The notes under the pieces were generated by a model that saw only the letters and a list, made by a program, of their open reading frames with translations, was not told the origin of the DNA and searched no databases. A DNA stretch of 64,000 nt from positions 1,363-65,362 of the forward strand of contig JBOGTG010000103.1 of NCBI GenBank assembly GCA_050692175.1, in the 5' to 3' direction. This document shows positions 1-17,561 of this stretch, piece after piece; position 1 is the first letter of the stretch; each line of letters starts with the position of its first letter. The DNA comes from Candidatus Limnocylindria bacterium. GTDB taxonomy: Bacteria; Chloroflexota; Limnocylindria; P2-11E. The translations under genes were made by a program, and so were the position numbers.

Positions 1-613
1 AGTGGGCGCCGACGCCGACGGAGCCGGCGTCGCTCTCGACGATGTCCCAGATCGCGGCGAGGTTCACGCGGGTTCGCACGACCGCCACGACCACGTTGTT
101 CGCGGCGACCGGCGACGAAAAGAAGAGAGCGGGCCTGTTGGTGATCACCGAGTAGGAGGGGTCGCTCACGTACGGCGTGCCTCTGGTCGCGGTGAGGAAG
201 TACTCGCGGAAGGCGATGCTCGTGCCTTCGTCGGTCAGAAGCGAGGCCGCGACGATGGTGCCCTTGAGGTCCACGACGGCGACGGATTCGTACTCCGGCG
301 ACCGGGCCGCCGCCGCCGAGAGCGCCGTGCGCGCGGCGGCGCGTGCTTCCTGGTCGCCGAGGTTCGTCGCGTAGCGGACGATGTCCGGCAGCTTGGCCAC
401 GAGAATGATGTCGCCGAGGCGGCTCGCCAGGTATGCATCGATGGCGTTCGCGGTGGAGGTGGAGCGCTGGCGGATGTTCGTGACGCCGAGCGCGGTGAGG
501 TCGTTACGGGTGTTGTTTGTGGAGACGACGCTGACCAGCCCTATCGGCGCCACCCCGACGATGACCAGCGCCGCGAGGACCTTCTGCCAGAACCGGACAC
601 GTGGCCGACCCAT
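1..613 (-). CDS. Sensor protein N-terminus (TM helix plus Cache-like extracytoplasmic domain). Only the 5' part is present; the gene continues off the left edge.
   Basis: Not in the ORF track because there is no stop inside the window. The reverse complement from ATG (613-611) reads MGRPRVRFWQKVLAALVIVGVAPIGLVSVVSTNNTRNDL...VVDLKGTIVAASLLTDEGTSIAFREYFLTATRGTPYVSDPSYSVITNRPALFFSSPV and stays open to position 1. Listed + ORF 2..700 is its antisense shadow. Confidence 0.6.
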   Translation of the reverse strand, partial: MGRPRVRFWQKVLAALVIVGVAPIGLVSVVSTNNTRNDLTALGVTNIRQRSTSTANAIDAYLASRLGDIILVAKLPDIVRYATNLGDQEARAAARTALSAAAARSPEYESVAVVDLKGTIVAASLLTDEGTSIAFREYFLTATRGTPYVSDPSYSVITNRPALFFSSPVAANNVVVAVVRTRVNLAAIWDIVESDAGSVGVGAH

Positions 614-14047: not shown

Positions 14048-14230
14048 CTACCGCATCCCAGGCGTCGTCATCTGTGGCATCCCGCCCATCATCGGAACGC
14101 AGCTCGCCGCCATCGTGGTCCACATGAAGATCCACGGGAGCGCCGCGATAAGCCCAACTACCACAAGCGCGATGAAGAGCGCCCTAGCCCACGCTGGCCA
14201 AACCTCTGGGGAAGCGGTCTGAACTGTCAC
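14048..14230 (-). CDS. Small single-TM protein with a Met-rich C-terminal tail
   Basis: AGGAGG lies 7 nt upstream of GTG 14230. One TM segment ([19 protein letters not shown]) is followed by [16 protein letters not shown]. The track start (14290) would overlap the extended upstream ORF. Confidence 0.45.
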
Positions 14231-14241
14231 CGGCGAACCTC

Positions 14242-14754
14242 CTATTGGGGCGGAAGCGGGGTATTGGTGCCCGGCCCGCGGCCGCTCCACTTCTCGTCGA
14301 CCCTGCGGCGAATCGCGAGGAGCGTCATGCCCTGGGCTTTCAAGTCGATCACGTCACGCGTGATCCCCGTGCAGATGTCTCAGCCAAAGCTCATCGTGTC
14401 CAGCCGCACACGGCCATCGGCCAGAACCTCGCGCACATAGCAGTCGAAATTCGAGCGGTGGCCGCCGGCGACGCAACCGCAATAGCACGGGAACCACTTG
14501 AGAGTCGCCTCGTTCACAGCGGCGTAGCGATACATGGCTTGTGTCTCTGCCGGCAGCTGCAAGAACTCGGCAGGCCACTCGTTCGTAGTCGGATTCGCGT
14601 AGAGCGGCGCGAGCGCATCCCCAGGCCGGGATGTGCCTCCGACACACGCGCCACCGATGGCACCAGCGGCCAGGAGCAGGAACTTGCGGCGCGACAGACT
14701 CACGGCGCTATTCTCGCTCATGTCTTTCCACGCGGAGCTTCGTTGGGATCCCAA
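14242..14754 (-). CDS. Tat-signal PCYCGC-domain protein. The canonical ORF stops at TGA 14382-14380; the proposed Sec read-through runs to TAG 14244-14242.
   Basis: SRRKFLLLAAG twin-arginine signal and WFPCYCGC motif. After the TGA the frame stays open for 45 codons (DICTGITRDVIDLKAQGMTLLAIRRRVDEKW...) with 39/45 G/C at third positions. A hairpin follows the TGA. The likely start is ATG 14721 or 14754. Confidence 0.55.
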
Positions 14755-14791: not shown

Positions 14792-15259
14792 TCACTCGGG
14801 ATCGTCGATGAAACCCCAGGCGTCGATTTCGATGAGTAAGTCCTCCCTTGCGAGGCCAGCTACGACCCCCGTCTGACAGGGTCGGATGCCGCCTTCGAAG
14901 TATTTGCGAATCACGGGGTAAGTCTCCTCGCGATACCTGATATCCGTCACATAGACCGTGAGCTTCACGACGTCCGACATGCTCCCACCGGCCATTTCCA
15001 TCAACGTCTTGATGTTCTCGCACGCTTGCCGGGCTTGAGCGGCAGGGTCGCCGGCACCGACAAACCTACCGTCCAGCGTGATTCCTGTCTGGCCCGTCAT
15101 GTAGACGAAGTTGCCCAAGCGATAACACTCAGCGCGTAATCCCCGGCTACCCAGAAGGCCGAGATGGCTCGCGTCGACAGAGTGAATCAGTTGCTTCTTG
15201 ACGCGGATGTACCTAAGAGGCGATCGGAGAGTTGCGGAGGCGGAGTTCGGGCACCGCAA
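14792..15259 (-). CDS. RidA/YjgF/L-PSP family protein
   Basis: ..[32 protein letters not shown].. is typical of the family. The start is uncertain, because ATG 15259 overlaps copZ by 47 nt. Confidence 0.8.
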
Positions 15260-15428
15260 CGGGAGCCTCTGCGAAGCGGACGCGCGCCGTTTCCGTCGCC
15301 AGGTTCACGCTGGCGTCGCTCACGCCCGGGTTCGCGAGCGCGCCTTCCACCGTGCGTACGCAGCTCGCGCACGTCATGCCCTCGATTGCGAGGGTGAGCT
15401 CCTGTTCGCGCTCCTTGGCGACTGTCAT
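15213..15428 (-). CDS. copZ: Heavy-metal-associated (HMA) copper chaperone
   Basis: The 71 aa product has the GMTCASC metal-binding motif. Its start abuts the stop of the upstream gene. Confidence 0.85.
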
Positions 15429-15847
15429 GTTCCGTGCGACTCCGCGGTCTCGCAGATTCCGGCGTCAGCCGGAGCTTGCGCGGTGGCGACACGCTCGCGG
15501 TCGAGCACCTCGACGATCTGAGGATGGGCATCGGACAGGCAGCAACGACACGACTTGTACCAGGCACGGATCCCGGCATCGATCGTGGGCGCGGCGGTGC
15601 CAGCGCCATGCGCATGCGCGCTCCCGCCGCTTTCGTGACCGTCGCCGTGGGAATCGCCCCCTTTGGCGAGCCAGGCCTCAACCTTCGGGATGTACGTGCT
15701 GGGACTCTTCGCGAACTTCTGCTGGCAACCGGCTGAGCAAAAGCCATACTCACGTTCCGCATATTCAAGGGTCAGTCCCTCTTCGCGCGCCCCGTCGAGG
15801 TCGACGATCATGTCGCAGATCGGATCGAGAATCTTTCCACTAGCCAT
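15425..15847 (-). CDS. YHS/TRASH-domain metal-binding protein with a His-rich linker and Cys-rich C-terminal half
   Basis: N-terminus [18 protein letters not shown] (YHS-like), then [18 protein letters not shown], then KSCRCC. Confidence 0.75.
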
Positions 15848-15875: not shown

Positions 15876-16136
15876 CTAGCGACGCGCGAGCTCGAGCACG
15901 TCAGCGAGCTCTTTCAAGACCTCGTCCTTGCGCCCCTCGCGAAGGGCCTGGGGCACGCAGGTGTCCAGATGACCGCGCAGGAGCTCCGACTCGAAGCGCT
16001 TGAACGCACGGTCGACGGCGTAGGTCTGCTTGAGCACGTCGATGCAGTACGTGCCCTCGTCGACCATCCGCCGGATGGCCTTCACGTGCCCTTCGATGCT
16101 GGCCAAGCGCGCGCCGAGCGCCTGCTGTTGCTTCAT
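15876..16136 (-). CDS. csoR: CsoR/RcnR-family metal-sensing repressor
   Basis: The 86 aa product from ATG 16136 reads RLASIEGHVKAIRRMV..YCIDVLKQ..HLDTC, containing the C-H-C ligand pattern. Confidence 0.85.
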   Translation of the reverse strand: MKQQQALGARLASIEGHVKAIRRMVDEGTYCIDVLKQTYAVDRAFKRFESELLRGHLDTCVPQALREGRKDEVLKELADVLELARR

Positions 16137-16164
16137 CTGGAGTCCTCCCGCCGGCGTGACAAGT

Positions 16165-16581
16165 CTACCCCCTCCGGGAGGGGGGTGGGTCGAACGATCT
16201 ACCGGCGCGTACCGGACGCACGAGTCGCGGAGCAGAGGCACAGCTCGTCGCTGCAGCCAACCTCATTGGCGGTGAGCAGGCCGATAGCTCGTGCCGCACA
16301 CTGTCAAGCTCCTGGAGACGAGTCTCGACCGCGGTTAGGTGCGTCCGTAGTCGGGAGACGATGACCCTGGAAGAAGGACGGCAACTGAGCTCTTCGGTGG
16401 CGCGAACGAGCCGAGCAAACTCACCCAATGCGAGCCCCAGCCGCTGCATGCGGCGGACGAAGCGCAGCTGCGTGAGGGCGCCATCGTCGAACAGTCGTTG
16501 TCCTCCCGCTGAACGGCTCGCGGCGCGGATCAACTTGCGGTCCGCGTCATACCGGACGGACACGGCCCTAACCTCCGACAT
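16165..16581 (-). CDS. MerR-family-like protein with an incomplete N-terminal HTH
   Basis: ..GGQRLFDDGALTQLRFVRRMQRLGLALGEFARLV.. matches the MerR wing and dimerisation helix. The first HTH helix is missing, and no alternative frame supplies it. Confidence 0.5.
   Translation of the reverse strand: MSEVRAVSVRYDADRKLIRAASRSAGGQRLFDDGALTQLRFVRRMQRLGLALGEFARLVRATEELSCRPSSRVIVSRLRTHLTAVETRLQELDSVRHELSACSPPMRLAAATSCASAPRLVRPVRAGRSFDPPPSRRG
16166..16187. promoter_or_regulatory. CsoR-operator-like C-tract/G-tract inverted repeat upstream of csoR
   Basis: The sequence is TACCCCCTCCGGGAGGGGGGTG. CCCCCTCC (16168-16175) is the exact reverse complement of GGAGGGGG (16177-16184). It lies 30-50 nt upstream of the csoR ATG. 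Known CsoR sites are GC-rich C4/G4 pseudo-palindromes. Confidence 0.45.
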
Positions 16582-16638: not shown

Positions 16639-16893
16639 TCACCGTGACAGGCGAGCGCGCACCGCGTCCGTGATCGCGGCGTGCTTCGGGAACCCTCCGT
16701 CGCGGTTCATCGAGTGCACCAGATCCCCGTCGACGGAGACCTCGAAGGTCCCGCCGTCCCACGGGATGAGCTCGATGCACGAGAGTCGCGCGCCGAACTC
16801 GAGCATGAGCGCCTTCGCGAGGTCGAGGGTCTGCGTCTCGTAGCCGCATTCGGCGCAGTACGTGATCTTGACCTTGTGCGCGGTCGGGGTCAT
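16639..16893 (-). CDS. Rdx family (SelW/SelT/SelH-like) thioredoxin-fold protein, Cys form
   Basis: KVKITYCAECGY (CxxC at the position that is CxxU in selenoprotein members), ..GGTFEVSVDGDLVHS..GGFP.. 84 aa. Confidence 0.75.
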   Translation of the reverse strand: MTPTAHKVKITYCAECGYETQTLDLAKALMLEFGARLSCIELIPWDGGTFEVSVDGDLVHSMNRDGGFPKHAAITDAVRARLSR

Positions 16894-17489
16894 GCGGCGA
16901 CGCGCGTCGCGATCTCCCGGAGCTCTCGGACTACCTCGGCGTTTGCGAACCTCGTGGTTTCGTCCCGCATCTTCGCGAGCTCGGCCTGCAGCCGAACGCG
17001 GGCGTCTTCCGAGAGCTGATCGACCGGCGCGTCGGGCGATCCGAACTCAGGATGCGCCGCGAAGATCTCCCGCCGGCGCTTCGCTCGCACCTCGGTGACC
17101 GATGCGGGCCGCTCGATCCAGTGCCCGAGCTCGCGGAAGTCATCGTCGAAGAAGGCGAAGACTGGGATCGACTTGAACTGCCCTTGGTTCAGGTAGCGCT
17201 GCATGATGTCGTCGTTCTGATCGCGGAGGAAGATCCGCACATCGAGCTTTCCGCTGTCCTTCGCGAGCCGGCCCAGGACGGGAAGATTCGCGAGAACGTC
17301 TCCGCACCAATCCTCAGCCAGAACCACGACCTTCACCGGGCGCGGCAGCGCGCGAAACGGAGCGAGCTCATCCGTGCCCAGCTCCACGCGGCGTTCGTTC
17401 TCTTCGAGGCGCTCGCGATTCCGCGTCATCTGCGACTTGAATCCGTCGTAGGTCAGGCCTTTATCGAACCGAGCGCGATCGATCGTCAT
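16890..17489 (-). CDS. Thioredoxin-like family protein (single-Cys WCGD motif)
   Basis: VVVLAEDWCGDVLANLPVL. An ATGA-type overlap with the downstream Rdx gene is present. The start is taken at MTIDRARF (ATG 17489). Confidence 0.7.
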   Translation of the reverse strand: MTIDRARFDKGLTYDGFKSQMTRNRERLEENERRVELGTDELAPFRALPRPVKVVVLAEDWCGDVLANLPVLGRLAKDSGKLDVRIFLRDQNDDIMQRYLNQGQFKSIPVFAFFDDDFRELGHWIERPASVTEVRAKRRREIFAAHPEFGSPDAPVDQLSEDARVRLQAELAKMRDETTRFANAEVVRELREIATRVAA

Positions 17490-17561
17490 TAGAACTGCCT
17501 CCCGAGATGCCCGGATGATGGCATCACGGAGCACAACGCGTAGGCAGGCCCGAAGATTCCT

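Follow-up and report, generated by a model that had tools for sequence, protein, structure and literature searches.

A conserved in-frame UGA, very probably decoded as selenocysteine, in a PCYCGC-domain (PF13798) gene of soil Limnocylindria

The stretch of DNA analysed here (the window, 64 kb in length) contains on its minus strand a run of genes which, in the order of transcription, encode MerR, a CsoR-type repressor, a YHS-domain protein, an HMA-domain protein, RidA, the putative selenoprotein described here, a 60-aa ORF and MoaA. The features of this region are as follows:

15876-16241, minus strand: CsoR-type repressor (Pfam PF02583, 80 bits)
15425-15847, minus strand: YHS-domain protein (PF04945, 25.8 bits)
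15213-15428, minus strand: HMA-domain remnant (PF00403, 54.8 bits)
14242-14721, minus strand: full predicted selenoprotein gene, 159 codons plus stop, from ATG 14721-14719 to TAG 14244-14242, with U as residue 114
14644-14721, minus strand: Tat-like signal S-R-R-K-F-L and hydrophobic region up to Ala25-Cys26 (lipobox-like), with sub-cutoff matches to TAT models
14473-14490, minus strand: P-C-Y-C-G-C motif, residues 78-83, of which the P, C, C, G and C columns are invariant in orthologues and distant Cys forms
14380-14382, minus strand: in-frame TGA, candidate Sec codon, residue 114, first position of U-D-I-C
14347-14365, minus strand: SECIS-like hairpin GAUCACG-CGUGA-CGUGAUC, 7-bp stem and loop CGUGA, 14 nt after the UGA, at codons +5 to +11
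14245-14379, minus strand: C-terminal part of the PCYCGC domain, 45 codons, translated only if the UGA is decoded, and holding Cys117 of the UxxC
14048-14230, minus strand: downstream small gene, 60 aa, one transmembrane (TM) helix followed by a Cys and Met-rich tail, coupled via AGGAGG 14238-14243

Translation of the minus strand from ATG 14721 runs through ..KWFPCYCGCVAGGHRSNFDCYVREVLADGRVRLDTMSFG to the TGA at 14382-14380, and in the same frame through DICTGITRDVIDLKAQGMTLLAIRRRVDEKWSGRGPGTNTPLPPQ to the TAG at 14244-14242. This bore out the description given in the initial annotation, with a short ORF that stops at the TGA (its end reading ..RLDTMSFG) and a frame that stays open for another 45 codons, of which 39 have G or C at the third position. 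The corresponding count for the upstream part is 88/116, with the other two frames of the tail reaching 26/44 and 24/44, and stops being present inside both. The gene start implied earlier, TTG 14754, was not retained, as ATG 14721 (MSENSAV..) is the likely start. The operon-like spacing restored by the extended frame was also found as described, since the TAG is overlapped by AGGAGG (14243-14238), which lies 7 nt ahead of the GTG (14230-14228) that opens the next gene. As noted before, TGA is used as an ordinary stop elsewhere in the window, where it terminates the neighbouring RidA, YHS, Rdx and thioredoxin-like genes, corresponding to 4/9 of the neighbouring genes. Stop-to-stop intervals of at least 45 codons make up 40% of those in the window (67.6% GC), so the 45-codon open stretch is by itself not significant, and single-sequence folding showed the hairpin to be no stabler than shuffled sequence (z = 0.04). 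Because the open frame and the hairpin energy are each unremarkable when taken alone, the significance of the locus comes from homology and conservation. Screening for a second in-frame TGA gene in the window gave no credible candidate, with the GC3-based screen being too permissive at 67.6% GC.

The read-through product, with the U written as C, was aligned to Pfam PF13798, as had been proposed as a check; the match scored 77.1 bits and spanned positions 49-153 of the 153-position profile. The ORF truncated at the TGA scored 47 bits, and both versions passed the gathering threshold of 25 bits. The tail alone gave 17.1 bits over profile positions 111-153, and since the tail matches these positions and the read-through product reaches the end of the model, the 45 codons correspond to the missing C-terminal third of the PF13798 domain. 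Upstream of the domain, models of TAT signals matched the N-terminus under their curated cutoffs (PF10399, 20.1 bits; PF10518, 12.4 versus 22.7; TIGR01409, 15.6 versus 16.7), and A25 and C26 were invariant across 15 orthologues. Judged from these signal features, the protein is probably an exported lipoprotein, likely Tat-dependent, and relatives carry the NCBI name 'PCYCGC motif-containing (lipo)protein', with one copy so named being 107 aa in length.

Gene-finder calls for the best 120 database homologues (60-87% identity) end exactly at ..DTMSF(G/N) in 118/120 cases. We subsequently compared the underlying DNA, using 15 loci from GTDB genomes (Candidatus Limnocylindria, other Chloroflexota MAGs and one Solirubrobacteraceae MAG), 80 soil metagenome contigs and three contigs carrying P0050. 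A TGA was present at the column in 98/99 related loci (57-87% protein identity), and the tails, of which 74 were distinct, were exactly 45 codons long in 96/99 loci, with two more ending at contig edges. Conservation downstream of the TGA was at the protein level and with a shared motif pattern, which answers the question raised earlier of what orthologues carry at and after this position. For the 16 distinct sequences compared first, the tail codons had variabilities of 0.14, 0.12 and 0.30 at their first, second and third positions, respectively; third positions vary most, a pattern indicative of purifying selection on the encoded protein. The sole locus without the TGA (L093, metagenome contig Ga0183260_10028650) has CGA (Arg) at the column, the next codon is changed from Asp to Glu, and the reading frame of the tail shifts after about 30 codons; this locus probably represents either a gene copy in decay or a faulty assembly. 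A locus at 63% identity with TGA and hairpin intact (L015, JBOGYU010000144.1) comes from the MAG labelled Solirubrobacteraceae (Actinomycetota), all other named genomes being Chloroflexota, and its placement reflects either horizontal transfer or a binning artefact. At the positions equivalent to 14242-14244, 81 loci have TAG as the true terminator, with TGA used in 10 and TAA in 5; this preference for TAG may serve to avoid a second UGA near the SECIS element, or may result from the ribosome-binding site of the next gene (AGGAGG) extending into the stop codon.

The wider family was surveyed with an exhaustive HMMER search, in which the part up to the TGA (window 14383-14730, including three codons upstream of the ATG) was the query and which gave 608 relatives. 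Within the best 150 cluster representatives of these, 88 stop precisely at the U column, including many that are only 37-50% identical and have different endings (..HGFG, ..HAFG, ..MAPT and ..MSAG), while 47 run through the column with a Cys and have tails homologous to that of the window. The tails of these Cys forms have the pattern C-x-x-C-[VI]-x-[IV]-[TA]..IR..[IV]D..[WY]..GP.T.TP.PP in common. Across 40 Cys forms, the invariant positions were P-C-x-C-G-C, one His, one Cys and C-x-x-C (including C140 and C143), and it is the first Cys of this last invariant pair whose place is taken by Sec in the predicted product. The proposal that the U lies on a conserved Cys column, making this a UxxC form of a PF13798/PCYCGC protein, is therefore strongly supported, by 47 Cys forms and by invariance of the column in 40. 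An AlphaFold2 model of the closest full-length Cys form (P0123) had a pLDDT of 93-98 over the domain; comparison of this domain model with the PDB using Foldseek gave no match with E below 1, and a profile search of PDB sequences gave chance ferredoxin matches only.

The hairpin downstream of the UGA was confirmed as a 7-bp stem with a loop that begins 21 nt after the UGA, but its stem starts 14 nt after the UGA, and not 13 nt as first described. No Rfam family was matched, either in the gathering-threshold scan of the window or in a permissive scan of 14200-14450, so that the covariance-model check suggested for this region was negative for the families in Rfam. Evidence for the hairpin came from its orthologues. 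Over codons +5 to +11, the entropy of synonymous codons among 79 distinct orthologous sequences is approximately 0, as against 1.2-2.1 bits at codons of four-fold and six-fold degeneracy in the rest of the gene, with Thr encoded by ACG in 79/79, Arg by CGT in 75/79, Asp by GAC in 79/79, Val by GTG in 79/79 and Gly by GGG in 70/79 sequences; CGT is a non-preferred Arg codon at the GC content of the window. An RNA-level constraint overlies the coding sequence at the hairpin codons. Within the clade, the four inner stem pairs are invariant and two pairs vary only by wobble-compatible changes; the outer pair is G-C in 57 sequences and C-G in 5, and 11 have it broken. The lower stem is only partly conserved.

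Four divergent Sec-form lineages (L105, L107, L108 and L110; 37-49% identity) all have the TGA and homologous tails, and a hairpin recurs in them with its codon offset unchanged but with different stem bases and compensatory changes, for instance UAUAGCG-CGUGA-CGCUAAA and CGUCGCG-CGUGU-CGCGAUG. RNAalifold returned the same hairpin as consensus for a gap-free 35-sequence alignment, in which 95.5% of the cells were paired versus 7-60% with the partner slid, and three stem pairs showed double changes. The covariation score was 0.176, compared to a mean of 0.094 for shuffled alignments and reached by 0/500 shuffles, although this covariation is carried by a small number of divergent sequences and by the outer pair (broken in 9/35 rows), with four of the seven pairs near-invariant. 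Synonymous freeze, RNAalifold consensus and covariation above both controls thus show that the SECIS-like hairpin is kept in TGA-carrying orthologues, as the initial annotation had asked. A G is retained at the fourth loop position (CGUGA, CGGGA, CUUGA and CGUGU). The bacterial SECIS consensus of Zhang & Gladyshev 2005 reportedly has the loop 16-37 nt after the UGA and a G in the loop. Like bacterial SECIS elements of the E. coli fdhF type and the bSECISearch consensus, the hairpin is a stem-loop inside the coding sequence just 3' of the UGA, with a loop from 21 nt and a conserved G; it differs from the fdhF type in its short stem (7 bp) and 5-nt loop, and no bulged U was identified. Two Cys forms were compared for the hairpin, which is not strictly exclusive to Sec forms: it is complete in the closest full-length Cys form (P0123, L103 1689-2246, 61% identical, with TGC at the column), where the loop has changed from CGU to CGC, and is lost in L104, a Cys form further removed that shares the GITRDV peptide. 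The former suggests a fossil SECIS element left after a recent Sec-to-Cys conversion.

Genes for the Sec machinery were searched for both in the window and around the related loci. A tRNA scan, a domain search of 28 large ORFs and Rfam detected no selA, selB, selD or tRNA-Sec within the 64-kb window, and SelA, SelB and SelD domains were absent from the searched flanks of related loci. A single tRNA-Sec was found by ARAGORN over all fetched DNA, located at 17-109 (minus strand) of a 1.8-kb soil metagenome contig (L097), with anticodon TCA and a match to Rfam RF01852 (75.5 bits, E = 3e-15). This tRNA gene is upstream of, and divergently oriented to, a PCYCGC orthologue with the TGA (61% identical), at a distance of approximately 400 nt; as the only tRNA-Sec linkage among about 110 loci, it may represent chance proximity. 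The use of Sec in Chloroflexota has been documented for Dehalococcoidia, with 46-49 selenoprotein genes.

On the comparative data above, we consider it very probable that the product of the gene at 14242-14721 (minus strand) is a selenoprotein 159 residues in length, belonging to the PCYCGC/CYCXC family (PF13798), and that the UGA at 14382-14380 is decoded as Sec. The SECIS-like hairpin 14 nt downstream, within the coding sequence, would recruit SelB with Sec-tRNA(Sec), both Sec insertion and SelB binding being what we infer from the conservation of the TGA, the Cys at its column, the selection on the tail and the RNA constraint with covariation. Translation would then run for 45 more codons and complete the PF13798 domain, with Sec replacing the first Cys of the invariant CxxC to give U-D-I-C, and the product may cooperate with the small Cys/Met-rich membrane protein from the adjoining downstream gene. 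An alternative put forward earlier is that a TGC-to-TGA nonsense mutation created a pseudogene, with the product ending after residue 113 and the 45 codons a decaying remnant. This would agree with all copies being annotated by gene callers or NCBI as 105-115 aa, and with TGA being an ordinary stop in the neighbouring genes. However, conservation of the TGA in 98/99 loci at 57-87% identity effectively refutes a nonsense mutation, as do its presence in lineages at 37-49% and the maintenance of frame, length and protein-like substitution pattern in the tail; the sole copy without the TGA is the one that has decayed, by frameshift. We regard a pseudogene as extremely improbable.

Genuine termination at the UGA, with the downstream sequence being a separate small peptide or a regulatory hairpin for the downstream small gene, could account for the database entry in which part of the tail is called as a separate 36-aa ORF, and for an internal ATG at tail codon 13 in many tails, and the hairpin might in principle influence translation of the downstream gene. 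We consider this very unlikely, since in Cys forms the same sequence is a contiguous C-terminal part of the domain that supplies the second Cys of the invariant CxxC, and is folded into the domain in the AlphaFold model (pLDDT 93-98); moreover, codon 13 of the tail in the window is TTG and not ATG, and conservation starts right at the codon after the UGA, including the Cys at +3. Recoding of the UGA as something other than Sec, either by near-cognate read-through (Trp or Cys) or by lineage-wide reassignment of UGA, would fit with the lack of Sec machinery genes within the 64-kb window, and is given a similarly low probability. Reassignment is contradicted by UGA ending at least four Pfam-supported neighbouring genes, and insertion of another amino acid by the nature of the column, an invariant redox or metal-binding Cys that makes a classic Sec/Cys pair, by the conserved stem-loop at a SECIS-typical distance and by the tRNA-Sec gene linked to one orthologue. 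Decoding as Sec is the reading followed below.

The suggestion that this is a new selenoprotein family was not upheld, as the protein is matched by NCBIfam NF041379, 'CYCXC family (seleno)protein (OS_HP4)' (E = 5e-12, 45.7 bits), and reviews list the family: PF13798 is given with a UxxC Sec motif in a 2026 review (PMC13188914) and OS_HP4 with UxxC in a 2022 review (PMC9312934). Both cite Zhang & Gladyshev 2007 (PMC1976440), the main text of which names only OS_HP1 to OS_HP3. The window protein is below the NF041379 equivalog cutoff of 90 bits, and since six other PF13798 members, both Sec and Cys forms, scored only 28-46 bits, the equivalog covers a narrower clade. With CYCXC/OS_HP4 it shares a homologous domain, the C-x-C-x-C motif, one Sec in a UxxC and the absence of an assigned function, but it is longer (159 aa versus a model of 90 positions), has the Tat-like signal and lipobox-like Cys, and is from soil Limnocylindria, whereas OS_HP4 came from a marine Desulfobacterota symbiont. 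The Sec column was equated with that of NF041379 by the UxxC motif, this pair being the only C-x-x-C spacing in the domain, since the cysteines of the PCYCGC motif are spaced C-x-C-x-C. The Cys-form PF13798 protein AOT13_14730 of Parageobacillus (PMC13068155) has the same conserved cysteines, including the lipobox Cys, but one of these invariant Cys is Sec here, export is probably by Tat, and the neighbourhood is one of copper/metal genes and not that of an Fe3+ binding protein as in Parageobacillus; the paper on that protein assigns PF13798 no function. The YHS-domain, HMA/CopZ-like and MerT/MerP-like selenoproteins (PMC13188914) are also small proteins with Sec in place of a metal-ligand or redox Cys and a metal-resistance context, but with unrelated folds, and the gene cluster in the window has YHS and HMA proteins of its own.

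The gene is a member of a mis-annotated clade of a catalogued selenoprotein family, and not of a new family. All public copies of the clade that were found are deposited short (105-115 aa, typically ~107 aa), with one third of the domain and one CxxC cysteine missing. A search with the tail alone found one 36-aa fragment; because this search requires shared 5-residue words, it shows the absence of deposited full-length versions, with either U or C, among close orthologues, and extends no further than that. Extending NF041379 or adding a sister model would correct the truncated entries. The novelty is modest, consisting of a soil Limnocylindria clade under the NF041379 cutoff that is deposited everywhere in truncated form, is found in copper/metal loci and frequently has a Cys/Met-rich partner; no selenoprotein family is added, and the knowledge of Sec decoding is unchanged.

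Neighbouring genes at other loci encode CopC/CopD, multicopper oxidase, cupredoxin, CtaG, cytochrome c, CDF, ZIP, ArsR and HMA/CopA proteins, and at a few of the related loci no metal genes were found nearby. A homologous small ORF (~60 aa) is located directly downstream in 54/92 loci and absent from 38/92. It has no Pfam or NCBIfam match. A Cys and a Met content of about 33% over the final 20 residues are common to all 46 distinct versions, and the small protein has one TM helix ending in ..PW[IL]FM, then MAA-x-C-x-PMM and the Met-rich tail. It resembles a Cu(I)-binding micro-membrane protein, and its gene is translationally coupled to the selenoprotein gene. The six invariant Cys/Sec and one His, together with the copper/metal loci, suggest that, outside the cytoplasm, the selenoprotein binds a thiophilic metal or acts on it by redox chemistry, with Cu(I) the most likely metal given the genomic context, from which a copper-related extracytoplasmic role is plausible. 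We tentatively propose a fuller picture, in which a distinct and abundant clade of soil Chloroflexota (Limnocylindria), uniformly mis-annotated, has a Tat-exported lipoprotein whose extracytoplasmic Sec would either ligate Cu(I) or form the selenylsulfide redox centre of a copper module, and which would work together with the ~60-aa Cys/Met-rich membrane protein, itself hitherto undescribed. If true, this would give the PF13798 domain a role in copper homeostasis. The putative family-specific SECIS element, the copper/metal context and the recurrent Met-rich partner provide a lead on the function of PF13798, for which none was assigned in the literature found.

The HMA-domain gene in the window differs from its counterpart in an 87%-identical relative (L099), which has the same gene order but encodes a full 745-aa HMA/P-type ATPase. 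The two loci are collinear at 82-89% nucleotide identity, except for approximately 2.1 kb (L099 7432-9521) missing at window 15199-15243. The missing sequence is the body of the HMA/P1B-type (CopA-like) ATPase, leaving the 64-aa N-terminal HMA domain as a 71-aa ORF, which represents either a copper pump deletion or a derived CopZ-like protein. Elsewhere in the window, at 16639-16893 (minus strand), is a gene for an Rdx/SelT-SelW-SelH protein (PF10262, 68.6 bits; TIGR02174, 56.6 bits), adjoining the gene for a Thioredoxin_9 protein (16890-17534). The Rdx/SelT-SelW-SelH family has Sec forms in other organisms, and the protein in the window is a Cys form (C-A-E-C).
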